From assembly GCA_001004905.1 (NCBI GenBank), contig LCRY01000002.1, forward strand, positions 269,873-333,872: a stretch of 64,000 bases of DNA. Reading direction: 5' to 3'. Numbering within the stretch: position 1 is the first letter of the stretch; each line of letters opens with the position of its first letter. Of the stretch, positions 5,192 through 57,559 are shown one piece after another. Position numbers and translations under genes: made by a program. Source of the DNA: Parcubacteria group bacterium GW2011_GWA1_56_13. GTDB taxonomy: Bacteria; Patescibacteriota; Minisyncoccia; Phycocordibacterales; Phycocordibacteraceae. A model generated the notes under the pieces. It did no database searches. It had not been told where the DNA came from and saw nothing but the letters and a program-made list of their open reading frames with translations.

Positions 5192-6109
5192 TCATACATG
5201 GACAAGAGAGTAGCCAATCCCACGTTCGGTTTTTATCGCGTAGGGACAGCCATTCAAGAACTTCCTGAGCCGCGTCACAAGCGCGTCCACCGCCCGCTCC
5301 TCAATGAACACGCTCGGTCCCCATACCGCGTCCAGGATGGCTTGCCGGACATGGAGACGGCCGACGGGATTGGCGAGGAAGCGGAGCAGATTATACGAAC
5401 GCGTGCGGATGACGTCCCGCCGAGGATTCGTGACGCCAATTTCCACCTCAAAATTGTCGTAGACGGTTATTCCCTCGAGGATGAGCAGAGGTCTTGACCC
5501 GGGTTTCGGTTCAGGCGCGATAAGAACTGTTTCTTTGTGCTGTTCTTTCGACCTGTCAAGGACCAGAAACCCCCGGCGTACTGCCTCAATTACCGCACAA
5601 ATTCTGTTCGGCGTAGAGAGTTTCCCGAGAATATGCCCCACGTGATTTCTGACCGTTTCCTTGGAGATCTGGAGGATGGAACCGATTTCCGCATTGGTTT
5701 TCCCCTCCGCTATCCACCTCAATACGTCCTGCTCCCGCGATGAAAGCAAGGATGGCATGTTTCCTCCCTGAAGAATTGTTTGCGTAAAGGGTTTGGGTGC
5801 TGATTTTGCTGCGGAGTTTTCATGATCCCTTTGCTGATCCTTCTGTATAGGACAGATCGCGCTCAATGTGCGCTCCAATTCCGCCATGTGCATCTCAACC
5901 TCAGAGCCACGGAAGATAACAAATCCATGGGAGGTCGCTTCCTCCACGACACGGAAACGCTTCCGGACCGAAAACGCCGCAAGGATATTGTGTACATCCT
6001 GGGCAACTTTATTTCTGGAGATGTCGAGGATCTGACTGATTTCGTCATTTGTTTTCCCCTTCGCCATCAGCTCGAAGACCCTGAGGCGGCGGTGTACATA
6101 AGGTTTCAT
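5192..6109 (-). CDS. unusual transcriptional regulator: two LuxR/GerE-type HTH domains plus a C-terminal OmpR/PhoB-type winged-helix domain; sits in the HrcA position
   Basis: First HTH: RLRVFELMAKGKTNDEISQILDISRNKVAQDVHNIL. Second HTH: LSSREQDVLRWIAEGKTNAEIGSILQISKETVRNHVGHILGKL. C-terminus: LLRFLANPVGRLHVRQAILDAVWGP...RLRKFL...IKTERGIGYSL (trans_reg_C-like). GGAGG lies 5 nt before the MKPYV start. Confidence 0.6.
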   Translation of the reverse strand: MKPYVHRRLRVFELMAKGKTNDEISQILDISRNKVAQDVHNILAAFSVRKRFRVVEEATSHGFVIFRGSEVEMHMAELERTLSAICPIQKDQQRDHENSAAKSAPKPFTQTILQGGNMPSLLSSREQDVLRWIAEGKTNAEIGSILQISKETVRNHVGHILGKLSTPNRICAVIEAVRRGFLVLDRSKEQHKETVLIAPEPKPGSRPLLILEGITVYDNFEVEIGVTNPRRDVIRTRSYNLLRFLANPVGRLHVRQAILDAVWGPSVFIEERAVDALVTRLRKFLNGCPYAIKTERGIGYSLVHV

Positions 6110-6708: not shown

Positions 6709-6750
6709 CATGCTCTCCCTTTCTTTCAAGGACTGGAACTGTCCAGGCGA

Positions 6751-6779
6751 ACTCTATTCCTGCATTTACACCAAGTCAA
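6751..6779 (-). promoter_or_regulatory. sigma70-like promoter of paralog A (TTGACT-N17-TAGAGT)
   Basis: Same architecture and spacing as the promoter upstream of paralog B. Confidence 0.45.
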
Positions 6780-13610: not shown

Positions 13611-14825
13611 CTATGGATTGATCGTCACGACGGATATCGAGGAAGGGTCCTGCGGGAAGGTCTGCCTCCAGAACGGCCGTAGGATGATGACCGCGCGCTT
13701 GACCTCCGGGTAGTTGGAGACGGCGACTTCGGCGCCAGAGCGTGTCTTTCCCGCGACCGCGGCGGCGATGCGGTTAGAATCCACGCTGTAGATAAGCGAC
13801 GCCGTGCCGGCAAGCGTGAACGGGAAGGTCTGTGCATCAGGACCGGGCATAGTCACCGCGGCCAGCATGAGATTATCGGCCGAAACCAGCGTGAGCGGCT
13901 CGCCCTGGTATGAGAGTCCAGCGACCGAAGACGCGATGGTTTTTGCGAGCGCGGGGTTGGGGAAAATAACCGCCGTGATGGTGCCCTGCTCCTTCACTTC
14001 GACCATGCCGGTCGTCGCGGAAGATGTCGGCGTGAGCTCCTCATAGACAGTGGTCGCGGCGCCAGGCAGGAGCACGTACCCGTCGGGAACCTGCGTTTTG
14101 ATGCTTGCGGCAAGATCGGGACCAAGCGCGGCCTGCAAAGCGCTTCGCGTCTGCTGCTCAAGCGCCGCATCAACGACCGGTACGGTCCCCGAAGCGCCGC
14201 CTGTCATAGTACTCGTCGAGCGCGCGTACACCATGGTCTCCTGCGGAGTTCCGGCGAACCCAGGAACGGTGAACGAGGTCGGGCCGACGTTATACGAGGC
14301 ACCCGGCTGATCGGCATAGACCTTTGCCGTTATGCTGCCGGGTTTTGCCGTCGTACCGCCTGGAATGGTTATCGCCGTGCGAATGCGGAAGATAAGCCCC
14401 GCAGCGGTCGCGAAACGCGTATTCGCAACGAGTCGTTGCTCCTTCGCCTGGGTATTGTAGATCGTGATGGTGCCGGATGCCGAAGAATTGACCGTTTTTG
14501 TTCCGCTTCCTTTCACGCTCTGAGACGCGATCTTCTGCGCGGTAATGGTCTCGAACGGGAGAACACCGCTGCTGCGGTTGGCCGTGAAAGAGGTCTGGAC
14601 CGCGGCCGAGACCGCGCTCGGGGTTACTTCGACTTTGGCGGTGGAAAAGTAAAACAGCGCTCCCACGGAAACGACGATGACGAGCAACACGACGACCATC
14701 GTCGTATACGGAAACCGCGGCGGTCGGTCTTGGGAAAGGTCAAGCGATGCTCTGCCCGGAGGACTAATAAGCGGTCCCGCGTCTTTACGGCGGGACGGTG
14801 GGATAATGTCATTGAATGTACGCAT
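13611..14825 (-). CDS. hypothetical bitopic membrane protein, possibly PilN-like (short cytoplasmic N-terminus with an INLLP-like motif FNDIIPP, then a TM helix and a large Thr/Ala/Ser-rich extracytoplasmic domain)
   Basis: N-terminal motif plus TM helix; adjacent to a PilM-like gene. Confidence 0.35.
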   Translation of the reverse strand: MRTFNDIIPPSRRKDAGPLISPPGRASLDLSQDRPPRFPYTTMVVVLLVIVVSVGALFYFSTAKVEVTPSAVSAAVQTSFTANRSSGVLPFETITAQKIASQSVKGSGTKTVNSSASGTITIYNTQAKEQRLVANTRFATAAGLIFRIRTAITIPGGTTAKPGSITAKVYADQPGASYNVGPTSFTVPGFAGTPQETMVYARSTSTMTGGASGTVPVVDAALEQQTRSALQAALGPDLAASIKTQVPDGYVLLPGAATTVYEELTPTSSATTGMVEVKEQGTITAVIFPNPALAKTIASSVAGLSYQGEPLTLVSADNLMLAAVTMPGPDAQTFPFTLAGTASLIYSVDSNRIAAAVAGKTRSGAEVAVSNYPEVKRAVIILRPFWRQTFPQDPSSISVVTINP

Positions 14826-24533: not shown

Positions 24534-25499
24534 TTACCGCAAATACTTCGCTTGGTTCGCCTGATGGGCGGCGTAGGTCATGGCGTAATGCATCACGCCA
24601 TTTCTGTCGGTGAGGTAATACAGGTAATCGGTCTTCGTCGGATGCAGGGCGGCGTTGAGAGCATTGAGCCCGGGATTGTTGATAGGGCCCGGCGGGAGTC
24701 CGACATGGGTATAGGTATTGTAAGGAGAGTCCACGGTGAGATCTGCGAAGGAAGGCGAGTAGGTATCGCGATTGAAGATGTAGCCGAACACAGCATCGAC
24801 TTGGAGCGGCATGCCGAGCGCGAGACGATTCCATAAGACGCCCGCGACGAGACGTCTGTGTTCGGTCGTGCGCGCCTCCTTTTCGATGAGAGATGCCATG
24901 ATAACGACGGATCCGAGTGAGTGCCCCGACGCTCGTATATCGGGAAGCAGTGGGCGTATCTTCGCGTCGAAGTTCTCCCGCATGGTGGCGACTATTTTTT
25001 CAATGGTCGTATCGGGGGGAAACAGATAGGTGTCGGGGAATAGGTATCCTTCGTTCGGCTTTCCCGCTCGTATGAAATCCTCCGCAGGGAGAAGCGGCAA
25101 CGCGCCTGCGACCCGGAGCGCCATCTCACGCACCGTCGTGCCCTCAGGAAAGGTGATGCGTGCCGGAGGGAGGTCATACGCGCCCACGGCCAGCCGGTAC
25201 GCGACAGTGAGCGCATTTTCCGGTGTTCTGAAAAAGTACGCACCCGCCTGCACATGAGAACCGGCGCCCGAGATCCGCAGGACGAAGCGCAGGACCTCGG
25301 GATGCTTGACGATGAGGGCGTCGGAGAGCTGTCGCGCTATGTCGGGCACTGACGCTCCCTGGGAAATGGAAATGATATCGCCGGAGGGAAAGTCCCGCGG
25401 CGGCGCAAGCACGAAGACGTACCCGATAACGAGAACGAAGGCAAGAGCGAGTGCTCCAACCATTCGGATATTCCGCTGTGAAAAATCGAAGCGGTTCAC
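24534..25499 (-). CDS. mltG: endolytic murein transglycosylase MltG (YceG-like)
   Basis: YceG domain with an N-terminal TM helix. Confidence 0.88.
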   Translation of the reverse strand: MNRFDFSQRNIRMVGALALAFVLVIGYVFVLAPPRDFPSGDIISISQGASVPDIARQLSDALIVKHPEVLRFVLRISGAGSHVQAGAYFFRTPENALTVAYRLAVGAYDLPPARITFPEGTTVREMALRVAGALPLLPAEDFIRAGKPNEGYLFPDTYLFPPDTTIEKIVATMRENFDAKIRPLLPDIRASGHSLGSVVIMASLIEKEARTTEHRRLVAGVLWNRLALGMPLQVDAVFGYIFNRDTYSPSFADLTVDSPYNTYTHVGLPPGPINNPGLNALNAALHPTKTDYLYYLTDRNGVMHYAMTYAAHQANQAKYLR

Positions 25500-26866
25500 A
25501 CAGGCAGATCAGGAGGGGCTTCGGCCGTCGGCGACTGAATGCGACGGAGTCCGGGCGTCGCAACGGTGCTCGAAGGAACGTGAAAAACAGTGGCGATCTC
25601 CTCCGTGCTCATGACCATTGCATTGTCCATGGCGAACGGTTCGTGGAAATACTGCCGGCGACGGAATGCCTGCACGATCTGCCTGCGGAAAGCATCCTTG
25701 CGACGCTCATTTCCGAACTCCCAGGGATAATCGCTGAACTCCATGCCGAAGTGGGTCGCTTTGACGCCGTTCCAGCCCTCCGAGTTGAACGCTTTGAAGA
25801 GGCTGATCATGCCGGTGATGAAGGTAGGATTGAAATGCTTCGGTTCAGCGATATAGACACCGCGACCACCGACGTCAAACGCGAGTTTTGACACATTGCG
25901 CTCAATGGCGGCGATGGTCTCCGACTGTCCTTTCGTCGGGTTCGGAAAGCCTTCGGTTTCGATCATTTTTCCGCTCGCCGAATCGAAGTATTTGAATTTC
26001 CTCGTCGTCTCGCGGCGTATCTTGTCCACTTCTTCGAGCGCTTGGTCGCGCCAGGTAAACCGCTTACCTTTCTCGTTTTTCTTATTGTATTTCTCGCCCG
26101 CGTGCACGCGGATGATGAATTGCAACCAGAAATACTGATGCTTTCCTATCGAACCCATGAATTCGACGATGCTTGCGAAAGGGTCTACCTGCTCGGGCTC
26201 CTTCTGCGTCTTGTCGAGGCCGTACTCGACATATGTCTTGATCGGGTACGCGTCGATCGGCTGTGTGTGTTTATAATCGCAGCCCCATACGCCCCACTCT
26301 CCGGGTTCCGCGCTGATGGTGCGCGTATAATCCATCGCCTCGACCATTTGCACGCCGGGATACTGGGAATAAAACGCGTTCTCGACGAGCTTGCGGAAAT
26401 CCGCGCGCGTCCACACGAAAAAATGTATCTCTCCCTCGAACGAAGCGATCTCCAACGACCAATACGGACGTACCTGGCCCTGCCAATATATCTGGAACCA
26501 GTTGCTCTCGCCCTTCGTATAGTGGATGCTGGATAATACCGTTTCCATGGCAAGCGGCGTTTTTACCAAATTTCGCGGCAGCTTGATCTCGAGCAGGACA
26601 TATGGTCGGGTCGCGATGAATTCGGAGCGTATGTACACGAGCCACAGCGTGAATGCGCCGCCCACGAGAAGGAACGGCAGCCACAAGGGCGCAAGGAAAA
26701 GCGCGAGCGAAAGGGACGCGGCGACCTGGGCCGGGAAAAATACGTAGGCGAGGAAGAGGAGAGTTATTCCCGCAATGAGGGGTGGCCACCGGAACGGGCG
26801 GATGCCCACGGTGTCGCGCGCATCGTTGACCAGCTTCGCAAGCTTGTCGTAGAAAGGAAGTAACAT
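25496..26866 (-). CDS. hypothetical membrane protein (2 N-terminal TM helices plus a large domain)
   Basis: ORF only. A TATACT -10 box lies 8 nt upstream of the ATG (possibly leaderless). Confidence 0.45.
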   Translation of the reverse strand: MLLPFYDKLAKLVNDARDTVGIRPFRWPPLIAGITLLFLAYVFFPAQVAASLSLALFLAPLWLPFLLVGGAFTLWLVYIRSEFIATRPYVLLEIKLPRNLVKTPLAMETVLSSIHYTKGESNWFQIYWQGQVRPYWSLEIASFEGEIHFFVWTRADFRKLVENAFYSQYPGVQMVEAMDYTRTISAEPGEWGVWGCDYKHTQPIDAYPIKTYVEYGLDKTQKEPEQVDPFASIVEFMGSIGKHQYFWLQFIIRVHAGEKYNKKNEKGKRFTWRDQALEEVDKIRRETTRKFKYFDSASGKMIETEGFPNPTKGQSETIAAIERNVSKLAFDVGGRGVYIAEPKHFNPTFITGMISLFKAFNSEGWNGVKATHFGMEFSDYPWEFGNERRKDAFRRQIVQAFRRRQYFHEPFAMDNAMVMSTEEIATVFHVPSSTVATPGLRRIQSPTAEAPPDLPV

Positions 26867-35149: not shown

Positions 35150-35187
35150 GAAGCAAAACCCGCCAAAGGCGGGTTTTGCTTTTACGG
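35150..35187. terminator. bidirectional intrinsic terminator between the SWIB gene (+) and mscL (-)
   Basis: gcaaaacccgcc-aaa-ggcgggttttgc, flanked by A/T runs on both sides. Confidence 0.75.
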
Positions 35188-35583
35188 AACGGCCTGCGTG
35201 CAGAATTTACAGCGCTTTGCGGTGATAGGTATCTCGCTTAGGCACTCCTGGCATTTTTTGGTCGTTGGGTCCGCCGGAGGCCCTTTATGCGAATGGGAAA
35301 TAAGCAGGTTTATCGGTTTTACGATAAAAAAGAAGACGGTTGTGGCGATGAGCAGGAAGGAAATGAGCGCGTTGAGGAAATGTCCGTAGAGGAACTTGCT
35401 GCCATTCACCGTGAAAGAGAGGTCGCTAAAATCAGGGACCATGGCGATAGCCGCGATGAGTGGGGTGATGAAGTCCGAGACGAGCGCCGTCACCACCGCT
35501 CCGAAAGCCGCGCCGATCACGACGCCAACGGCGAGGTCGATCACGTTCCCGCGCAATAGGAATTGTTTCAGTTCTTTCAGCAT
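35182..35583 (-). CDS. mscL: large-conductance mechanosensitive channel MscL with a C-terminal Cys4 zinc-ribbon tail
   Basis: MLKELKQFLLRGNVIDLAVGVVIGAAFG...; C-terminus KKCQEC...RCKFC. Confidence 0.9.
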   Translation of the reverse strand: MLKELKQFLLRGNVIDLAVGVVIGAAFGAVVTALVSDFITPLIAAIAMVPDFSDLSFTVNGSKFLYGHFLNALISFLLIATTVFFFIVKPINLLISHSHKGPPADPTTKKCQECLSEIPITAKRCKFCTQAVP

Positions 35584-47843: not shown

Positions 47844-49019
47844 ATGCGGAAAAGAAGATCTGCGCCGCCGAAGAAGTTCTTTTGGAGCATTGCGCTTGGC
47901 GGCCTGCTACTCGTGGGCGTCGGCGTGTCCGCGTGGCTTGGTGCCGCGGGCGACACGGAGGAGGCGCTCGGCTCGACAACGCAGGCGGTGCCGTATCCGG
48001 CTCAATATTCCGACGCGCATATCACCGAGAATGCGGTGGTTGCCGATCCGCGATTCAAAGATATCGCTATTCCACGGCGGATAAGTTTTCTGGCAAGCGT
48101 TCTCCCGGGATTCCCGCCGTCCAGGAGTTTCGCGCCGGACACTTCCGAGCCGGAACAAGGCACGTGGCTATGGACCCCGACGCTCGACATCACCCCGCAG
48201 TACCGGGACGCCGTCATCGCCGAAGCGCGCAACAACGGCATCCGGAATATCTATCTCTCGATAGATTCCTATCTGGACATCTACGTCATGCCGGACGGGC
48301 CGGAGAAATACGCAAAGCAAAAAGCGTTCGACAAGGTGCTCGAGGACTTCATCGCCACGGCGCGCGCAAGCGGCATCGCGGTTGACGCGGAGGGAGGGTG
48401 GAGGAATTGGGCGGAAAAGGGGCACGTGTACAAGCCGTTCGCCCTGCTGGAGTACGTCAAAGGATTCAATGCCGCCCATACCGAGAAATTCCGCGGATTC
48501 CAGTACGACATCGAGCCCTATCTCCTCTCCGAATATCAGGGCGATAAGAGACGGGTGTTGAGCGACTATCTCGACCTCATGGGCGAGACGGTGGCGCGGC
48601 TCGACAGCACCGATCTGCTGTTCTCCGTCGTCATCCCCTATTTCTACGATGACGGTGACGAAACACCCCGGTTCGTGTACGGCTTGCGCGCCGGATATGC
48701 GCTCGACCACCTGTTCGCGATACTCGAGCGCCGGCCGGGGAGCAAGCTCATCGTAATGGCGTATCGCAACCATAGCGACGGCGCGGACGGGTCTGTAGAG
48801 ATCTCCCGCGGCGAGATGAAAATGTCGGAACGTTTTGCGACCAAGGTCGTCATCGCACAGGAAACGGGCGATGTCACGCCGTCCTTCGTCACCTTTTACA
48901 ATACGTCGCGTTCGCGCCTGAACGCGCAGCTGCAGAACATACACGACGCATTCGCCGAGAACAAAAGATACGACGGCACCGCCATTCACTATCTCAACGC
49001 CCTGTTGGCGCTCAAATAA
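47844..49019 (+). CDS. hypothetical secreted protein (TIM-barrel-like? no confident family)
   Basis: Signal/TM N-terminus. Confidence 0.45.
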   Translation: MRKRRSAPPKKFFWSIALGGLLLVGVGVSAWLGAAGDTEEALGSTTQAVPYPAQYSDAHITENAVVADPRFKDIAIPRRISFLASVLPGFPPSRSFAPDTSEPEQGTWLWTPTLDITPQYRDAVIAEARNNGIRNIYLSIDSYLDIYVMPDGPEKYAKQKAFDKVLEDFIATARASGIAVDAEGGWRNWAEKGHVYKPFALLEYVKGFNAAHTEKFRGFQYDIEPYLLSEYQGDKRRVLSDYLDLMGETVARLDSTDLLFSVVIPYFYDDGDETPRFVYGLRAGYALDHLFAILERRPGSKLIVMAYRNHSDGADGSVEISRGEMKMSERFATKVVIAQETGDVTPSFVTFYNTSRSRLNAQLQNIHDAFAENKRYDGTAIHYLNALLALK

Positions 49020-50417: not shown

Positions 50418-50612
50418 TCAGAGTGCGCTCTTTTCGGGCGCGAGCGGGACGAATATCCACGCGGCGATGTAGGCGATGAGGAACGCGCCGGAGAACATGA
50501 GGCCGAACGTGACGAGCCGGACGATGATGGGGTCAATGTCGAAATATTCGGCAAGCCCTCCCGCCACTCCGCCGATGATTCTGTTGGTCCGCGAACGATA
50601 AAGTTTTTTCAT
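50418..50612 (-). CDS. PspC-domain membrane protein
   Basis: MKKLYRSRTNRIIGGVAGGLAEYFDIDPIIVRL. Confidence 0.85.
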   Translation of the reverse strand: MKKLYRSRTNRIIGGVAGGLAEYFDIDPIIVRLVTFGLMFSGAFLIAYIAAWIFVPLAPEKSAL

Positions 50613-50911
50613 CCTGTAGTGAAATTTTGGTTTGTTAAATCCTTCGACCTTTCCTTATATAGGAACTCTTTTAATCTCCTCTTTAATAGTCTACCACCTT
50701 GGGTTGTCTTCAAATACCCCTCTCGCCTTTTGGCATCAACGTCATCGAGACAAGCCTCGTAGTAAATAATTTGCCATGGTAGATATCGCTTGGTCGACGG
50801 ATTTAACCCTTGATTATGTTCTGCCAACCTTCTTTTTAGGTCGGTAGTATACCCGACATACAACTCATTATTTTTCTTACTCTGTAGAACGTAGGTATAG
50901 AACATAATCAA
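50609..50911 (-). CDS. GIY-YIG nuclease family protein
   Basis: FYTYVLQS...ELYVGYTTDLKRRLAEHN. Confidence 0.8.
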   Translation of the reverse strand: MIMFYTYVLQSKKNNELYVGYTTDLKRRLAEHNQGLNPSTKRYLPWQIIYYEACLDDVDAKRREGYLKTTQGGRLLKRRLKEFLYKERSKDLTNQNFTTG

Positions 50912-50950
50912 ACCAAAATTCTACTACGGGATTCATGCGTACAGTATACC

Positions 50951-51319
50951 TCAGTCGGCACTCGCTTTATTCGCCTTCGCTTTTGCCTTTAGCATTCGCT
51001 GTATGACTGTCGCCGGAACTTTTTGGTCGAATCGTATCTGTACGGTTTTACTGCCGGTCGTATAGCCCTTCTTTTCAAGCGCTTTGCGGTCTTTGTTTGG
51101 GAGCGCGGAGGCGAAGCCGAATCCGGCGTGATTCTTGAACGCGGCAAATCCGGCAAGAAGCCCGTGATATTTGTAGAACGGTATGCCCCAGCTTATTCCC
51201 TCTTCCGCTTTCGGAATGGCCGACGTTATGACTTTCCGGAGCTCTTTGAGCGTCGGACGGGCTTCTTTGCCCGAACCGGCGATGTAAGCGTCAACATCTT
51301 TTGCGCGATAGTTCCTCAT
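50951..51319 (-). CDS. DUF1801 (YdhG-like) domain protein
   Basis: Family-level similarity. Confidence 0.6.
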   Translation of the reverse strand: MRNYRAKDVDAYIAGSGKEARPTLKELRKVITSAIPKAEEGISWGIPFYKYHGLLAGFAAFKNHAGFGFASALPNKDRKALEKKGYTTGSKTVQIRFDQKVPATVIQRMLKAKAKANKASAD

Positions 51320-51362
51320 ATGCCTGGTCGGGTGATTTTACCATTTTGACCCTCTTCGGAAT

Positions 51363-52139
51363 TTATATTCTTTCAGTGTTCTGAACTAAGTTATTCAGTT
51401 CTGCATATAACCTTACGAAGAATTTTTTCATATCTAATTTGTGAGTTTCGCCAATTGGAACCTTCGACTTCAATATTCCGCCAACTTGTTTACTAAATCT
51501 AGAGTTTGTCTTACCGCCTGAATGTAAAGTAATATTTCTTAAAGCGTTGAGGAGTTTCAGCCTTTCGAGATCCTTCTTAGTTTTAAATATTTTTATGCCA
51601 AAACGTTGTGTCAGAAAAGTGGCCCAAGTATCTATATCTTGGGATTTTTCAATGGCTATGGAATCAATAAAGTAGTTCTTGACCTCTAAAACCTTTTTAA
51701 AATCCTTAACATCTTCAAACTTGAGAACTCTTTCCGACTGAAACGATGACGGGTATTTTTTAAATAATTCTTTTAGTATCTCAAACATAAAACATTCAAA
51801 GTTTGCAAATAACGCTATAAATCCTAGTTCGTAGAGCTTCACCATTTGATTGTCGTTAATTTCCAGGTATTTTTTAAACTGTCCGTATCCCGGGTGAGTT
51901 TTTGCCTTCGTAAAATCAAGTAGTTGCTCGGTTGCTCCAATCTGCGCCTCTAACGCATGAATTAGTAGGTATGTCTCCTGAACCTCTTTTTTTAGGTTGA
52001 TTAAGGATTTTAGATTTTTAGAGTTAATTTTTTCATAAAATTCTTCGGAGTCCGAAACTATCTCAAACGGCACATTCGGCCTACTGGCCTCAGTACACCT
52101 TCGCTCTCGCTCAGTTGCTGCCCGATGGGATTTGGTCAT
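51363..52139 (-). CDS. hypothetical protein with a possible HEPN-like Rx4H motif (ALRNITLH); Abi-like? low GC
   Basis: Motif only. Confidence 0.3.
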   Translation of the reverse strand: MTKSHRAATERERRCTEASRPNVPFEIVSDSEEFYEKINSKNLKSLINLKKEVQETYLLIHALEAQIGATEQLLDFTKAKTHPGYGQFKKYLEINDNQMVKLYELGFIALFANFECFMFEILKELFKKYPSSFQSERVLKFEDVKDFKKVLEVKNYFIDSIAIEKSQDIDTWATFLTQRFGIKIFKTKKDLERLKLLNALRNITLHSGGKTNSRFSKQVGGILKSKVPIGETHKLDMKKFFVRLYAELNNLVQNTERI

Positions 52140-52151
52140 ATATAAGGAGGA

Positions 52152-53084
52152 TTACTGAGAGAAATCTTTTAGTTTGAAACTGATCTCATATAGAAAGACT
52201 TCGATATTGGGGACCATCCGGAGTGCGTAATCTAGACGTTTGTCGTAAGATCCGGCGACTATAACTGCTTTCACATTATCGTCTCCCTTATTGGCCTTTA
52301 TCCAACCCATATATCGCGTAGCTTGCCCAACCGTGTCATCACTTGTTTGATTCCGCTTTAGTTCAATGACCACATGGCTACCAGTCTTTTTATCCTTTGC
52401 GAGAATATCAATCGGACCTATATCCGTTTTGTATTGCTGGCTCATGAGTTCTCCATCTTCAACAATTAAGTCGAAGCGTTTCCCAAGCTCTGTGTTATCC
52501 CAATTATGAATTAGAAAGTCCTCAAGTTGCTTTTCCATGTAAAAAAGACCTTGGCTCGTCGGGGATTTCTCGTCCCGAATCTTAAGAGAAGCTACTTTGC
52601 CATAATATTCGAGCAACGTCTGAAGATCTGATTCAAGTTCTTTATCTCCAGCTAACTCTCCGCTTTTAGCGTATACGATTGCGAAACTATCACTGTGTTT
52701 CGCAAACTGTAATTGATATACCTTGAAAACAAAAGAATCTCCGTATCGAGGAACCTTCTCTCCAAAGAAAGCTTCAATAGTGTTAGCTTCATTTTGTATT
52801 TCCACTGGCCAAGCTTCTGCGTATGCTTCAGTCTCGCTCACTCCATATGCAAGAATTAGTGTTTGACGATCTTTGTAATAAAGATATACGGGGTAAAAAC
52901 CCTTACTCACTTTCATTTCCGGAGTAGTGAACGCAATCCAAGGAACTCTTGCGGGAGATCCCATACCAAATGACACCTGCATCCGGAAATCGGCTAGAGT
53001 TCTAGGGTAAATAGCTGTTTTAAGTTCCGTGGAATTAGCTTGAACGATAAAGTCTCTAAGGGTTTTGGCAAAGCCGTCCATCAT
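52152..53084 (-). CDS. DUF3578 (McrB-N-like modified-DNA-binding) domain fused to a DUF91/NucS-like PD-(D/E)xK nuclease; putative single-chain modification-dependent restriction enzyme
   Basis: N-terminus VPWIAFTTPEMKVSKGFYPVYLYYKD; C-terminus DIGPIDILAKDKKTGSHVVIELKRNQTSDDTVGQATRYMGWI. Confidence 0.55.
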   Translation of the reverse strand: MMDGFAKTLRDFIVQANSTELKTAIYPRTLADFRMQVSFGMGSPARVPWIAFTTPEMKVSKGFYPVYLYYKDRQTLILAYGVSETEAYAEAWPVEIQNEANTIEAFFGEKVPRYGDSFVFKVYQLQFAKHSDSFAIVYAKSGELAGDKELESDLQTLLEYYGKVASLKIRDEKSPTSQGLFYMEKQLEDFLIHNWDNTELGKRFDLIVEDGELMSQQYKTDIGPIDILAKDKKTGSHVVIELKRNQTSDDTVGQATRYMGWIKANKGDDNVKAVIVAGSYDKRLDYALRMVPNIEVFLYEISFKLKDFSQ

Positions 53085-53177
53085 ATAATTTCCAATCTAA
53101 TCCGCCCTAGTCACAGGTACGGTGTCCCGATTTGCTGCCTGCGATTCCTGTATCTGATATCGTCTCCAGCATATGGC

Positions 53178-53214
53178 AAAATCATCCCACAAAATCTTCA
53201 TTTTTGCGACTCCC
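53178..53214. repeat. 37-nt perfect direct repeat, copy A (leader module upstream of the DUF3578-DUF91 gene)
   Basis: Identical to 53926..53962; on the minus strand it reads GGGGAGTCGCAAAAATGAAGATTTTGTGGGATGATTT (Shine-Dalgarno plus the start of a uORF MKILWDD...). Confidence 0.8.
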
Positions 53215-53287
53215 CCGCCCTGCAGCGGGTATCCCCAAGTAGGAGAGTTCACTTGAATTTAAGAATGCTTTTGGCTATAATGGGGGC

Positions 53288-53361
53288 ATCTTTTGGTCCT
53301 CGGACTGAAAGGGTACTACATCCAAGAGCAGCCCTCCTCACGGAGGGCTGCTTCTATTTTT
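53288..53361 (+). ncRNA. candidate ~70-nt small RNA: near-consensus promoter (TTGAAT-N16-TATAAT at 53254..53281) and an intrinsic terminator (53328..53361). Its 3' end converges on the NYN gene stop
   Basis: Seen directly; no + strand ORF in the interval. Confidence 0.35.
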
Positions 53362-53920
53362 GCCGGTGCAGGAGTTGCCTGCCCCAAATATCATCTTCAA
53401 TAGTGAGGATATCGGTATATCCGTCCCCACCGGTTTTGAGTTCGCGCGAAATATTGTTTTTCGAGGAAAAGACATATGTCTTTTTGCCACCGTTGCGAAG
53501 GTATCTGACAAGAGCTAGGAAATCCGAATCGCCGGTAAAGAAAACTGCTGTGCTGTAGGAATCGCGATGATGCATTGCATCGATTGTTATCTCGACATCC
53601 ATGTTCCCTTTTTCTTCAAATGAATCGCCATTCTCGCCATGGATAGCGATGCGCTTCAGTTCTTTCTTTCGGACAATAAAGCCAAGTCCTTTTTTAAGAT
53701 AAGTATAGAATTTATGTTTGCCTTCGAGACTATAAGTCCGTGTCCCTTTTGCTGGGTACGCAGTATAGAAAAATATCCTAACTAATTTTGGTTTGAATCT
53801 ATTTTGGAGATATTTTTGCAATTTCTGATAGTCAAAGACCCGGCCTTTCGCTTTCTGAGCTTCCCACACATTTGCCGCATCAATAAAGACGGCGATGCTA
53901 TCGTGAATTGCCCGCGCCAT
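53354..53920 (-). CDS. NYN-domain (LabA-like) putative ribonuclease
   Basis: IAVFIDAANV...; NYN fold residues. Confidence 0.8.
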   Translation of the reverse strand: MARAIHDSIAVFIDAANVWEAQKAKGRVFDYQKLQKYLQNRFKPKLVRIFFYTAYPAKGTRTYSLEGKHKFYTYLKKGLGFIVRKKELKRIAIHGENGDSFEEKGNMDVEITIDAMHHRDSYSTAVFFTGDSDFLALVRYLRNGGKKTYVFSSKNNISRELKTGGDGYTDILTIEDDIWGRQLLHRQK

Positions 53921-53925
53921 ACATT

Positions 53926-53962
53926 AAATCATCCCACAAAATCTTCATTTTTGCGACTCCCC
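53926..53962. repeat. 37-nt direct repeat, copy B (leader module upstream of the NYN gene)
   Basis: See copy A. Confidence 0.8.
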
Positions 53963-54014
53963 TACTGCCCGACAGGAACCGCGAGTACGCCTTGTGAAGG
54001 TGTCTTCGGCGGAG

Positions 54015-54629
54015 CTACCCTAAGTCCAGCTTTCGGAGAACAGCTTGTGTGTCATCCTCCTGTTTTCTGACTTCCACCCATGGATAACCGTATTTCTCGA
54101 CATCTGCCTTTAGCAGATGGCTGAATAGGGTTGCCCACTCAACCTCTTTTTCCTTTACTTCGTCGGGATACGTCCGTGCGCCATCCCATAAACCACGCTT
54201 AAAGATGACTTCGCGCATCCTGTCCGCATCCTCGTCTACTAGGAAAACCGCTTTAACATGAGGAGTATTGCTGAAGTCCCTTGCGACTAGGTGCGGTAAA
54301 ATGGCGACGCCCTCCACGACAAAACCCTTGCGCCACGGGTATTCCTCTTCAATAAGCTTCTTTACCCCAGGCCACGTTGCCTCTCCCTTCTCCATCTCCA
54401 TGCGCACTATTTCTTGGGCCGAAAATTCGGTGAGGAACTTTTCTCCTGAATAGCCCTCGTCGCTGAAAAGGTTCGGTATTTCCGAGGGGTTAGCAACGGT
54501 CCGCATTATTTCCTGTACTTGGTCCGTTGATATCCAAGGAACATTCAGATGCGCCGCAACTGCTTCGGCAATAGTTGACTTGCCGACCGTAGGAGCACCG
54601 CCTATCAAAATAATCTTTCTGTCTTTCAT
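54015..54629 (-). CDS. P-loop NTPase / kinase-like protein
   Basis: Walker A: GGAPTVGKST. Confidence 0.6.
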   Translation of the reverse strand: MKDRKIILIGGAPTVGKSTIAEAVAAHLNVPWISTDQVQEIMRTVANPSEIPNLFSDEGYSGEKFLTEFSAQEIVRMEMEKGEATWPGVKKLIEEEYPWRKGFVVEGVAILPHLVARDFSNTPHVKAVFLVDEDADRMREVIFKRGLWDGARTYPDEVKEKEVEWATLFSHLLKADVEKYGYPWVEVRKQEDDTQAVLRKLDLG

Positions 54630-54804
54630 ATACGTGATTATATCGCACCACCAAAATCATGTATTTGAACGCGTCTGCAACGCAAGAACCTATCCCAAAC
54701 TGGTACGTTCGGCCTGGGACGGTATTGGAACTTCACCCGAGTCTAATGAATCCTAAGTTAGGATGTTGCTCACGTACCGTGAAATTCTATCGTACGCATA
54801 CATG

Positions 54805-55278
54805 ACGTCAAAAAATACCATTTGCCTCTGGTTTGATAAGGATGCGCAGGGCGCAGCGGACTTTTATGCCGCTACGTTTCCCGACAGCAAAGTAGGTACT
54901 GTTTTCCATGCACCCAGTGATTTTCCTGATGGCAAAAAAGGCGATGTGCTTACGGTAGAATTTACCGTCTGCGGAATTCCGTGTATCGGTCTGAACGGCG
55001 GTCCTGCGTTCAAGCAAAGCGAGGCATTTTCTTTTCAAATCGCGACGGATAATCAGGAAGAGACGGACCGCTATTGGAATGCAATCGTGGAAAACGGCGG
55101 AAAAGAGAGCGCGTGCGGATGGTGCAAGGACCGCTGGGGAGTATCATGGCAGATTACGCCGCGAACGCTCACCGAGGCACTCGCCGCTGGCGGCGCAGAG
55201 GCAGAGTGTGCCTTTAACGCGATGATGACAATGAGAAAAATAGACGTCGCCGCTATTGACGCCGCCCGACGGGGTTAA
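54805..55278 (+). CDS. PhnB/3-demethylubiquinone-9 3-methyltransferase-like (VOC/glyoxalase-fold) protein
   Basis: MTSKNTICLWFDKDAQGAADFYAATFPDSKVG... Confidence 0.65.
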   Translation, partial: TSKNTICLWFDKDAQGAADFYAATFPDSKVGTVFHAPSDFPDGKKGDVLTVEFTVCGIPCIGLNGGPAFKQSEAFSFQIATDNQEETDRYWNAIVENGGKESACGWCKDRWGVSWQITPRTLTEALAAGGAEAECAFNAMMTMRKIDVAAIDAARRG

Positions 55279-55386
55279 GAAGAACGTCCTGGGACGATGT
55301 TTGAACTATGTTAACCAAACGCGAACGAAAAATAAAGGGCGGCCATCTTTCGAGTGGTCGCCCCTTGTCACACGGCGCGTATGGAC

Positions 55387-55665
55387 TTATTTCTTTTTCG
55401 CTCGCCTCCGCGAGTTGGTCACATACTCCCTTTCCGCAACCTCGAGAAGATGTTGGGTCAGCCTCAGTAGCCACTCATTACCATCGGAGCGTCCGTACAA
55501 CTGGAGGAGACGTTGCTGGAACGCCGACAAGCCGTTCCAATTCTTGAACACCTCGTCAGTCGCACTGGGCTCGACGCAATGCTCGAATTGAAACATTGAT
55601 CCGTCGATCGTAAAGCGAAGGCCGAGCCGGTAATTTTCATACTTCAAGAAGAAAGTTTGGGGCAT
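55387..55665 (-). CDS. hypothetical protein
   Basis: ORF only. Confidence 0.3.
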   Translation of the reverse strand: MPQTFFLKYENYRLGLRFTIDGSMFQFEHCVEPSATDEVFKNWNGLSAFQQRLLQLYGRSDGNEWLLRLTQHLLEVAEREYVTNSRRRAKKK

Positions 55666-55770
55666 ATCACCTCCGCAGTTGCCCAATGTTGATAATGAAA
55701 CCCTGCTGTTAGCATACATTATTTAAACATGATGTCAAGTTTTGCTGCCGGGTTTGGATTCGAACCAAAA

Positions 55771-56187
55771 TTAGAGACCTTCAGGGAAAAGCAACTTTAC
55801 GGTCGCTTTAATGATTTCCTGGTGGTCGCCTTGTGCTTGTTCGAGGGTGACGGCAACCTGATCGAGGGTAAATCCCTCGAACCTGGGTTTCAATTCGTTA
55901 ATGTCGCAGAGGGTAAGAAAGCACAGCGTCGCCGTTCTCTTGTTTCCATCGGTAAACAGGTGATCATTGATGAGGAAATAGAGATAGGCAACCGCCTTCT
56001 CCTCGGGAGAGGGATACGCTTCTACTCCGAAATATGAGTTATTTATATTCGCGACGATCGCGTCGGCCTTGGCCTCCGCATCTTGCGTCAGTGGGAACGA
56101 GACAAGGCCTCGGCTATGAAGCAGAGTGTAAATCTTGCAAACGCTGCTTGACGTTAGTAGTTCGAATGTCTTTCTTGCCGGCGTCAT
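55771..56187 (-). CDS. Doc/Fic-family toxin (death-on-curing)
   Basis: Fic/Doc motif HLFTDGNKRTA. Confidence 0.7.
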   Translation of the reverse strand: MTPARKTFELLTSSSVCKIYTLLHSRGLVSFPLTQDAEAKADAIVANINNSYFGVEAYPSPEEKAVAYLYFLINDHLFTDGNKRTATLCFLTLCDINELKPRFEGFTLDQVAVTLEQAQGDHQEIIKATVKLLFPEGL

Positions 56188-56302
56188 AATCACGCAGGGA
56201 TTCAATCACGTCACGGTGCCGATTGAGCTGCCGTTCAGCAACCTTCACGACCTCTTTTTGAGGGGTCTGTTTATTCTTCGTAGATTTGAGGAACCCTAAC
56301 AT
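56114..56302 (-). CDS. putative antitoxin upstream of doc (overlap unusually long; boundaries uncertain)
   Basis: Position only. Confidence 0.25.
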   Translation of the reverse strand: MLGFLKSTKNKQTPQKEVVKVAERQLNRHRDVIESLRDYDAGKKDIRTTNVKQRLQDLHSAS

Positions 56303-56359
56303 GCACTAAGTATACCATAACGCCCTATAACCGCTAAACGAGGGCTCTCCTGCACACAG

Positions 56360-56430
56360 CTGGGGGACTTGGAATCGAACCAAGATACTGGGCTTCAAAG
56401 GCCCATGTCCTACCGTTAGACGATCCCCCA
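56360..56430 (-). tRNA. tRNA-Gln (anticodon TTG)
   Basis: Cloverleaf: U1:A72, anticodon loop CTTTGAA, T-arm CTTGG-TTCGATT-CCAAG. Confidence 0.8.
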
Positions 56431-56473: not shown

Positions 56474-57559
56474 CTATTTTTGCTTCTCGTCCGCGAACAG
56501 TTCGAGGACGGCGAGCTCCAAGGGGAGCGCAGGGATGGGCGCGTAGCGGATGCGCTCGGCGGCGGTAAGGAACGCGAGCATCGCCGCGTGCGTAATGCCC
56601 CCTGCCCCGAGCTTTGTCGAGGGGTCCTCTTTGCCTGCACTGAGCGGAGTCGAAGTGGCGAATTTCTCAAGCGCGGAAAATTCGTCCGCGCCGAGCTCGT
56701 CGGCGAGCGAGGCGCGCAGCTCGGGTGCGTAGCGGATGAGGAGCGTGGCGCGCAAGGCCTCAAGCACGAGCTCCAGGAAAATCCTCATATCCACGTCGGC
56801 TTTCGCCGCCTGCTCGATAGCCGCAAGCGCCTTGCCGCGCTCGCCGCGGGCGAGCGCGGCTATGAGCGCGTGTACGTGTTCCCTCCTCGGCGCTCCGGTA
56901 GCGGCTTCCACCGCCTCGCGCGAGAGCGCCTTCCCTTCCGCGCCGGCAAACACTTTCTGCAGTACCGAGAGCGCGTCGCGATAGGAGCCGTCGCCCAGGA
57001 TCGCGATGAGCTCGGCGGCGTCGCTCGCGAGAGCATATCCTTCCTTCTTCGCGACCACCGATGTCATTTTGGCGAGCACGGCGCGCGTCGGCTTCTTGAA
57101 CTCGAACACCTGACAGCGCGATTGCACCGTGTCCGGCACCTTCTCGAGCTCGGTCGTCGCGAGGATGAAGACCGCGTGCGCAGGCGGCTCTTCAAGCGTC
57201 TTCAAAAACGCATTCCACGCGCTCTTCGAGAGCATGTGTGCCTCGTCGAGGATATACACCTTGTAGGGAGAGCGGAACGGCAACGTGTACACGCCCTCGG
57301 TGAGCGCGCGAATATCCTCCACGCTGTTATTGCTCGCCGCGTCTATCTCGTAGAGGTCGTTTTCCTTGCAGCCGATGGCCTCCGCGAAAATGCGCGCGAC
57401 CGAGGTCTTCCCGAGCCCGCGGCTCCCCGCAAACAGATACGCGTGGCCTATTTTTTTTGACTTCGCCGCCTCCTCGAGCGGCTTCGTGACCTGTTCCTGT
57501 CCCAGCACATCGCTAAACGCCGCCGGGCGGTAAACCCTATAGAGTGCCTGATGCGCCAT
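56474..57559 (-). CDS. dnaX: DNA polymerase III subunit gamma/tau (short form)
   Basis: AAA+ Walker A GSRGLGKTS, box VII, SRC motif. Confidence 0.93.
   Translation of the reverse strand: MAHQALYRVYRPAAFSDVLGQEQVTKPLEEAAKSKKIGHAYLFAGSRGLGKTSVARIFAEAIGCKENDLYEIDAASNNSVEDIRALTEGVYTLPFRSPYKVYILDEAHMLSKSAWNAFLKTLEEPPAHAVFILATTELEKVPDTVQSRCQVFEFKKPTRAVLAKMTSVVAKKEGYALASDAAELIAILGDGSYRDALSVLQKVFAGAEGKALSREAVEAATGAPRREHVHALIAALARGERGKALAAIEQAAKADVDMRIFLELVLEALRATLLIRYAPELRASLADELGADEFSALEKFATSTPLSAGKEDPSTKLGAGGITHAAMLAFLTAAERIRYAPIPALPLELAVLELFADEKQK

Follow-up and report, generated by a model that had tools for sequence, protein, structure and literature searches.

Extended -10 promoters of Gram-positive bacteria are marked by the motif TRTGn, and extended -10 promoters of a leaderless type occur in Actinobacteria and other groups. 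Convergent antisense small RNAs are a feature of type I toxin-antitoxin systems such as RatA/txpA and SR4/bsrG of Bacillus subtilis. Promoter reuse ahead of non-homologous genes is an established phenomenon (PMC3575422); the putative mobile promoters of Matus-Garcia, Nijveen and van Passel (2012; PMC3575422) were defined by an identity of at least 80% over at least 50 nt within positions -150 to -50 relative to the start codon. The present analysis concerns positions 269,873 to 333,872 of contig LCRY01000002.1 of the Parcubacteria group bacterium GW2011_GWA1_56_13, a stretch of 64,000 nt referred to as the window, and centers on a 37-nt element, GGGGAGTCGCAAAAATGAAGATTTTGTGGGATGATTT, which precedes two non-paralogous genes, one encoding an NYN-domain RNase and one encoding a fusion of an McrB-N reader with a NucS-like nuclease (McrB-N/NucS). 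Sequence comparisons suggest, with a probability that we put at roughly 0.78, that this 37-mer is a reused leaderless core promoter and not a translated leader.

As a preliminary description of this DNA had reported, the 37-mer is a perfect repeat before both genes. The window holds exactly two copies, copy A at 53179-53215 and copy B at 53926-53962, each read on the minus strand; no third copy was found in the 64 kb at up to 3 mismatches, with none expected by chance either, and in an alignment of the two neighbourhoods identity breaks off sharply at both 37-nt edges. Copy B, the predicted core promoter of the NYN gene, consists of a -35-like hexamer TCGCAA (53951-53956), a 17-nt spacer, TGTGG (53934-53938), and the -10 hexamer GATGAT (53928-53933); it ends 5 nt from the NYN ATG (53920), and since GATGAT lies 7 nt before this ATG, the NYN mRNA is predicted to be leaderless. 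Copy B shows what is expected of a leaderless -10 element, i.e., a hexamer with A at its second and T at its sixth position, 5-9 nt to the start codon, and no Shine-Dalgarno sequence, and it shows TGTGG directly upstream of the hexamer, as in extended -10 promoters, along with a -35 hexamer that agrees at just 3 of 6 positions. Copy A, a second promoter cassette copy that heads the McrB-N/NucS gene cassette, has its -35 at 53204-53209, TGTGG at 53187-53191, and its -10 at 53181-53186, followed after 8 nt by an ATG. This ATG, at the leaderless position, opens a 21-codon mini open reading frame (MLETISDTGIAGSKSGHRTCD and a stop codon; 53107-53172, minus strand) that ends 22 nt before the McrB-N/NucS ATG (53084), from which the end of copy A is 94 nt away. 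A terminator scan found no minus-strand terminator between the 37-mers and their genes.

The genome to which the window belongs appears to be largely leaderless, as judged from its sequence. Among 45 open reading frames (ORFs) of the window, -10-like hexamers peak 6-9 nt before the ATG, where they were found for 21, as compared to about 0.6 per position elsewhere, and the same 45 ORFs show no Shine-Dalgarno peak. Examples of ORFs of the leaderless type are located at 13611-14825, 25496-26866, 35182-35583, 47844-49019, and 56474-57559. The pattern of a hexamer followed by ATG is also shared by dnaX and by a P-loop kinase gene in the neighbourhood of the 37-mers, the latter with its own leaderless-type promoter (TATAAT, 7 nt, ATG).

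Loci compared with the window were numbered from L001; seven of them (L001-L006 and L014) show an identity of at least 99.9% with the window and represent the same organism, a Candidatus Kaiserbacteria metagenome-assembled genome from Rifle-type groundwater, and were set aside. In NYN orthologues from unrelated contexts, for instance L015 and L018-L022, the 3' two-thirds of the 37-mer are found in the corresponding position, in the form of a block ending in TTTGTGGGATGAT that is followed by 7-8 nt and the ATG, with no Shine-Dalgarno sequence; the version at L015 ends in AAAGATGTGTGGGATGATTTAATGCATG, and those at L018-L022 are alike. In more distant NYN orthologues, a plain TATAAT-like hexamer precedes the start codon by 6-8 nt. 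The block is present in three copies each in L018 and L021, four in L019, and two in L020, with unrelated genes downstream; in these genomes it also precedes genes for a DUF3800 protein, a MazG-like protein, and a 740-aa methyltransferase. The preliminary description had proposed a search for copies upstream of other genes, and variant-tolerant scans indeed found the family before many unrelated genes: a metagenome pattern scan that covered the observed variants identified 19 loci, and when these were pooled with the NYN-orthologue loci, 21 of the resulting 28 family-type instances had the start codon of an ORF of at least 40 aa positioned 6-9 nt after GATGAT, where our rough estimate of the chance rate for such spacing is about 1 in 28. 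According to Pfam, genes behind family blocks encode Mrr, Tsp45I, DpnI, type ISP, N4/N6 methyltransferase, NYN, MazG-like, and DUF3800 proteins; an XRE regulator is also among those behind blocks found by the scan. The family consensus, TTCCCnAAAATGAAGATTTGTGGGATGAT, comprises a -35-like hexamer (TTCCCA, 4 of 6 positions), a 17-nt spacer, TGTGn, and the -10 hexamer, in which A(-11) and T(-7) are preserved in all members. The exact 26-mer core of the repeat had no match in genome contigs or viral contigs. A viral origin was considered and rejected, as the promoter block and the core of the small RNA described below are both absent from viral contigs, and a tRNA origin of the 37-mer was treated as chance, as only 9 nt (GGGGAGTCG) are in common with a tRNA-like fragment at L007.

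Copies of the family also occur in arrays. At L113 (4447-7234), five family-type copies lie within about 3 kb in an array of small genes, each with a near-identical cassette, and at L104 (4089-5937) three copies, which include a GC-rich palindrome upstream, are found in another such array. L016 carries a distinct promoter module (AACAATCRATATTGTAYGAGGCG...TATAAT) before two adjacent genes (at about 5955-6000 and 6740-6775), which shows that promoter reuse in genomes of the Candidate Phyla Radiation (CPR) is not confined to one motif.

The element, if a promoter, falls into known classes, namely reused promoters and leaderless promoters. Like putative mobile promoters (PMC3575422), it consists of near-identical upstream DNA before non-homologous genes within one genome and has related copies in other genomes. 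The genes involved are non-paralogous (NYN and McrB-N/NucS in the window; Mrr, DpnI, and others elsewhere). Unlike putative mobile promoters, the cassette is only about 30-37 nt long, includes the -10 hexamer, abuts the start codon, and is found mostly ahead of restriction and defence genes, within a single CPR lineage; the window repeat, at 37 nt and at positions -42 to -6 for NYN, falls outside the published length and position limits, and the repeats in L019 (107 nt) and L018 (62-79 nt) would satisfy the length limit. With extended -10 leaderless promoters of Actinobacteria and others, the cassette shares A(-11) and T(-7), a distance of 6-9 nt to the start codon, the lack of a Shine-Dalgarno sequence, and the TGn motif, but it differs in that its hexamer is GATGAT rather than TANNNT and in that its spacer and -35 region are conserved and form a partial dyad.

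If the 37-mer is a promoter, copy B would be the native promoter of the NYN gene, with an mRNA that begins at or beside the start codon, and copy A would be the same cassette placed at the head of the genes for McrB-N/NucS, a 258-aa protein, and probably a DUF1801 protein. Transcription from copy A would begin at about 53172, which corresponds to an approximately 88-nt leader. The cassette family would be reused by Kaiserbacteria-like groundwater CPR genomes before unrelated genes, mostly for restriction and defence. The idea of a common cis-control element for the two genes, put forward in the preliminary description, is upheld, with the control predicted to be transcriptional.

Several observations weigh against the promoter interpretation. 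Initiation by RNA polymerase at the 37-mers is inferred from geometry and conservation; two positions of GATGAT depart from TATAAT, and the window copies have a poor -35 hexamer. Conservation of the spacer goes far beyond the needs of an ordinary sigma-70 promoter, and something further, for example a regulator site or a shared recent origin, acts on it as well. An additional, proximal -10-like hexamer, TAGATT (53092-53097), is located 9 nt before the ATG of the McrB-N/NucS gene. The orthologue of this gene at L007 lacks the 37-mer, with DNA that aligns with the window from 46 nt upstream of the ATG only, and has TAAACT at the corresponding place (2797-2802). This proximal hexamer may be the gene's own leaderless-type promoter besides copy A, so copy A may be redundant and, beside TAGATT, is no more than a candidate for the promoter that drives the gene. 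Finally, the copies located after the NYN-small RNA module in L018 and L019 are cut within the -10 hexamer, and these right-hand copies are thus not selectable as promoters.

These truncated copies bear on how the repeats arose, which is itself a matter of inference. Copies within a genome are identical or nearly so and copies in different genomes differ (as seen for the window, L018, L019, L021, and L022), a pattern that suggests local copying, or gene conversion, during the addition of cassettes; the NYN promoter block also has a copy after the NYN-small RNA module in five other genomes. A possible, though doubtful, alternative is that the NYN gene and its small RNA are a mobile module and that the 37-mers are the footprint of its insertion, i.e., a long target duplication or a Campbell-type scar beside a resident promoter, in which case copy A would be the promoter that the downstream gene had originally and copy B its duplicate, or the reverse. 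In 7 of 69 loci, the NYN module is surrounded by perfect direct repeats of 25 nt or longer, as compared to a maximum of 15 nt in 410 cross-locus comparisons and 13 nt in inverted orientation. At L041 (2873-2918 and 3774-3819) the repeated DNA corresponds to the 3' end of a host flavoprotein gene and at L075 (1525-1544 and 2606-2625) to a host terminator; moreover, the cut right-hand copies of L018 and L019 look more like junctions than like selected promoters, the module is found in many contexts, and its GC content in the window is lower than that of the host genome. Against an insertion footprint, the module contains no transposase or integrase, the repeat lengths (25-104 nt) are unlike enzyme-defined target duplications, and the block is also found before genes that do not flank NYN (L018, L019, L113, and L104). 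A hybrid pattern representing the empty site was unmatched in metagenome contigs, which is a weak negative given that the collection is incomplete; a pattern matching the window's 37-mer did not return the organism's own Joint Genome Institute contig (Ga0209210_1002867). Direct repeats of host sequence also bracket the NYN-small RNA module at L064 (2900-2941 and 4288-4331), and together with those of L041 and L075 they hint that the module inserts leaving long, variable duplications. Local copying and insertion duplication are not mutually exclusive, and an insertion footprint is compatible with promoter function of both copies.

It is unlikely, in our view, that the block is mainly a site for a dimeric regulator that binds a dyad (TTCCCAAAA and TTTGTGGGA around GAAG) and co-regulates defence and accessory genes, with the promoter role secondary or dependent on the regulator or on an alternative sigma factor. 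Such an operator would account for the conservation of the spacer and -35 region far past sigma-70 requirements, and the genes behind the block form a coherent set (restriction, modification, nucleases). On average, the left arm agrees with the reverse complement of the right arm at 7 of 9 positions, as compared to 5.0 for shuffled arms, about 6% of which reach 7; in this test the left arm was largely unconstrained by the search pattern, but the right arm and the centre were fixed by it. The symmetry is nevertheless modest and degraded in the window copies (GTCGCAAAAA), no candidate regulator gene is linked to the block, and the conservation may reflect plain recent copying. A joint model, in which the cassette is the dyad operator-promoter of a lineage-specific defence regulon and the NYN gene and its small RNA form a new RNA-protein module, is speculative and rather improbable as a conjunction; in its regulon part, the cassette may be copied before each newly gained restriction or defence cassette and thereby yield leaderless, co-regulated transcripts.

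The proposal in the preliminary description that the 37-mer supplies a Shine-Dalgarno sequence and the start of a short upstream ORF (uORF; MKILWDD...), whose translation is coupled to or attenuates that of NYN and the nuclease, can be set aside as very improbable, because the nucleotide block is conserved independently of reading frame and at a fixed 6-9 nt from the starts of unrelated genes. The uORFs do exist as ORFs: that of copy A has 34 codons (53201-53097) and stops 12 nt before the McrB-N/NucS ATG, and that of copy B has 16 codons (53948-53898) and overlaps the NYN start; GGGGAG sits 9 nt before the uORF ATG, and the uORF is in principle translatable on a read-through transcript from the kinase gene. 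Neither start codon nor frame is conserved among homologous elements, however. Of 7 close NYN orthologue copies, 4 lack the upstream ATG (L015, the NYN copy at 2981 of L019, L020, and L022), and a 1-nt indel or a substitution (ATGAAGATTTTGTGG, ATGAAGATTTGTGG, ATGAAGTTTTGTGG) changes MKILW of the window to MKICG (L019 and L021) or MKFCG (L018). GGGGAG is unconserved, as the family has TTCCCn there, this genome shows no Shine-Dalgarno signal, and no minus-strand terminator was found ahead of the two genes. The variable distance of 6-9 nt to the main start leaves no constant frame relation, and the predicted promoter places the uORF ATG in its untranscribed spacer. A use of the upstream ATG for an N-terminal extension of the downstream proteins was rejected as well, given that the distance to the start (6-9 nt) and the length of the T-run vary.

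The gene behind copy B (53354-53920, minus strand) encodes a 188-aa NYN-domain RNase of the LabA/DUF88 type (Pfam NYN, 7.7e-23), and a convergent small RNA (sRNA) gene situated between the two 37-mers on the plus strand (53253-53361) was recognized by a promoter and terminator scan, conservation, and covariation. The sRNA promoter (TTGAAT, 17 nt, TATAAT) is located at 53253-53281, and the predicted transcript of about 75 nt (approximately 53288-53361) has a 5' hairpin, a single-stranded GGGUAYUACAUCCAAG, a GC-rich terminator hairpin (53326-53353), and a U-run. The region after the NYN stop codon is conserved in all 82 of the 82 orthologue loci examined across Patescibacteria, with a consensus in which a TTGACn-17-TATACT promoter is followed by a hairpin of 10 bp, an almost invariant GGGUAUUACAUCCAAG, a GC-rich hairpin of 12 bp, and a U-run. 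Across 80 aligned sRNA sequences, 97.8% of the cells at paired positions are paired, 13 of 22 pairs show compensatory changes, and the covariation score is 0.40, as compared to 0.20 for shuffled alignments (reached in 0 of 500) and at most 0.12 with slid partners. G-U pairs are abundant, which places the sRNA on the strand opposite NYN. A covariance model has one match in the window (85.8 bits), and at L104 it also matches beside a 192-aa ORF driven by a cassette copy. Rfam has no family at the sRNA or at the 37-mers, the sole match being a sub-threshold chance hit to Phe_leader in L061. The strongly conserved sRNA is apparently undescribed.

This arrangement changes how the NYN gene is best viewed. 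NYN homologues number 2254, are 65-87% identical, and extend across Patescibacteria; the gene is very widely conserved in this group and always accompanied by the convergent sRNA, which does not agree with its earlier classification as a defence gene, and it is better seen as part of a widespread NYN and sRNA module. No literature link between the NYN domain and Patescibacteria was found. We hypothesize that the sRNA is a partner of the NYN RNase that acts as an antisense RNA or binds the protein; the pair could be an antisense-controlled RNase of a toxin-antitoxin-like kind, or the RNA could serve the RNase as its dedicated cofactor or substrate. Like type I toxin-antitoxin RNAs, the sRNA has its own promoter, is convergent to a potentially toxic gene, and overlaps it at the 3' end via a common hairpin. 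Unlike them, its partner is a 188-aa NYN RNase, with hypothetical toxicity, rather than a small membrane peptide, a DnaA box often abuts the sRNA promoter, and a single-stranded segment is invariant, which suggests protein binding or a trans target. A candidate trans pairing between this linker and the NYN coding sequence, prompted by GGAUGU at the invariant NMDV codons, showed no excess over shuffled linkers and was rejected. The DnaA-box motif (TTATCCACA, at most 1 mismatch) abuts the sRNA -35 in 25 of 75 loci (among them L024, L026, L029-L031, L048, L051, L076, L080, L089, L092, and L093), as compared to 3 of 75 control windows, which suggests DnaA-dependent control or proximity to the origin; the counterpart in the window (about 53229-53237) is degenerate (7 of 9). 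The module may often be under DnaA-box control, and its transfer between genomes may leave long direct repeats.

With regard to the gene behind copy A (52152-53084, minus strand), Pfam, NCBIfam, Protein Data Bank (PDB), and PADLOC comparisons agree on a 310-aa single chain that joins an McrB-N (DUF3578) reader to a NucS/YhcG-like PD-(D/E)xK nuclease, as the preliminary description had proposed in its DUF3578-DUF91 assignment (Pfam MrcB_N, 1e-12, and NucS_C, 1.2e-14). NCBIfam matches the McrB N-terminus at 1e-16, and residues 8-118 are homologous to the 5-methylcytosine-binding domain of Escherichia coli McrB (PDB 3SSC, E = 4e-16). PADLOC matches PDC-S02 at 3.8e-47, where only the nuclease half is represented, as a candidate. 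The family has 1592 matches of about 308 aa, with at least 58% identity among the best 120, and occurs in bacteria and DPANN archaea. W49 and Y64 of the pocket and D226, E241, and K243 of the nuclease are invariant in 28 sequences of this family, and L68 is kept in at least 90% of it; a role of Y64 and L68 in modified-base reading is known from McrB work (PMC3874153). With a homologous McrB-N reader, an invariant pocket, and invariant catalytic residues, the protein is a compact putative modification-dependent (type IV-like) restriction enzyme, a well-founded prediction. Both halves are intact, as required of a single-chain type IV enzyme. It resembles the EcoKMcrB N-domain (3SSC) in its homologous reader and conserved methyl-contacting Y64 and L68, and it resembles the single-chain Mrr and MspJI in the fusion of a reader to a PD-(D/E)xK nuclease (invariant D...ExK) with no methyltransferase partner. 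It differs from EcoKMcrB in that it has no GTPase motor and no McrC and has Met in place of Y41, and from Mrr and MspJI in that its nuclease is NucS/YhcG-like, not Mrr-cat or MspJI-type. A specific description of McrB-N/NucS fusions was not found in the DUF3578 papers examined. At L009, L010, and L011, an orthologue that is 70% identical follows a Vsr-like gene and an ORF of 158-160 aa that runs up to or into the start of the nuclease gene, and it is adjoined by a type I restriction-modification system, a clear defence-island context.

Downstream of the nuclease gene, the 258-aa protein (51363-52139, minus strand) belongs to a small family with 48 matched homologues, among which its first approximately 34 residues are not conserved. 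The preliminary description had called it HEPN-like on the basis of an Rx4H motif. R201, N202, and H206 of the motif (RNxxxH) are invariant in 35 sequences of the family, and a structure model is all-alpha (predicted local distance difference test score, 85). Neither the protein nor its 48 homologues has a Pfam domain, however, and Foldseek gave no PDB fold match for the model; with no profile or fold match, HEPN identity is unproven, and the protein is a possible HEPN-type RNase. It is not a steady partner of the nuclease, which has other neighbours in L007, L009, and L012.

These genes lie in a compositionally distinct accessory block flanked by core genes, as first described, with a GC content of 0.35-0.51 as compared to approximately 0.60 in the flanks (GC profile of the window). 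The block is wider than the initially proposed 50560-54700; it spans about 50,600 to 56,350 and ends at tRNA-Gln(UUG) (56359-56430, minus strand), with dnaX alongside. Pfam agrees with the initial domain calls for GIY-YIG (5.9e-18), DUF1801 (2.3e-17), NYN, and the P-loop kinase. On the minus strand are a small GIY-YIG nuclease gene (50609-50911), the stop codon of which overlaps the PspC start, the DUF1801 gene (50951-51319), and the kinase gene (54015-54629), with 2-phosphoglycerate kinases as the nearest NCBIfam models. Inverted repeats of 24 nt (50611-50634 and 50909-50932; 88% complementary) bracket the GIY-YIG gene exactly, and the two may together form a miniature mobile unit; a motif of these repeats, CAAACCAAAAT, is also found at 53784-53799 and 55760-55771. 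The additional part of the block (54763-56302, mixed strands) contains a PhnB/3-dmu-9_3-mt-like gene (54763-55278, plus strand), a Fic/Doc toxin gene (55771-56205, minus strand), and a small ORF upstream of the latter (56114-56302, minus strand), and these last two look like a toxin-antitoxin pair. Directly after the Fic/Doc stop codon, a 28-nt fragment resembling a tRNA 3' end (T-arm and acceptor, TTTTGGTTCGAATCCAAACCCGGCAGC; 55744-55771) shows 79% similarity to the corresponding end of the nearby tRNA-Gln and has the appearance of an old attachment-site remnant.

The block shows deviating GC, a neighbouring tRNA-Gln, and variable content among relatives, as expected of a tRNA-adjacent island, but Pfam found no integrase or recombinase domain in its nine ORFs and the adjacent PspC (50418-56302), and the fragment at 55744-55771 is the sole repeat of the tRNA 3' end. 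At L007, the closest nuclease orthologue from outside the organism itself (90% identical) directly abuts tRNA-Gln and dnaX, and the NYN, kinase, and Fic genes are absent; since just the nuclease gene is found there beside the same tRNA and dnaX, the block represents a variable region at a tRNA-Gln hot spot. A tRNA-like 5' fragment (GGGGAGTCGTCTAATGGTAAGC) is located immediately upstream of the intact tRNA-Gln at L007 (2421-2445), and tRNA debris is common at this hot spot.

To our knowledge, almost nothing is known experimentally about the transcription signals of CPR/Patescibacteria, for which this locus provides a concrete, testable promoter family. A leaderless genome would have consequences for gene-start calling and expression design in this group. 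The McrB-N/NucS family, which has more than 1500 bacterial and DPANN archaeal members, makes a good candidate for modification-dependent restriction by a compact enzyme, and the NYN-associated sRNA, a clean new family of covarying RNAs, is attractive for functional study; the sRNA and the association of the promoter with defence genes are the parts most worth following. The presence of one cassette before genes for Mrr, DpnI, Tsp45I, type ISP enzymes, methyltransferases, and McrB-N/NucS suggests a way for ultra-small genomes to express acquired defence genes at once, and horizontally acquired defence genes with this common cassette are possibly co-regulated.

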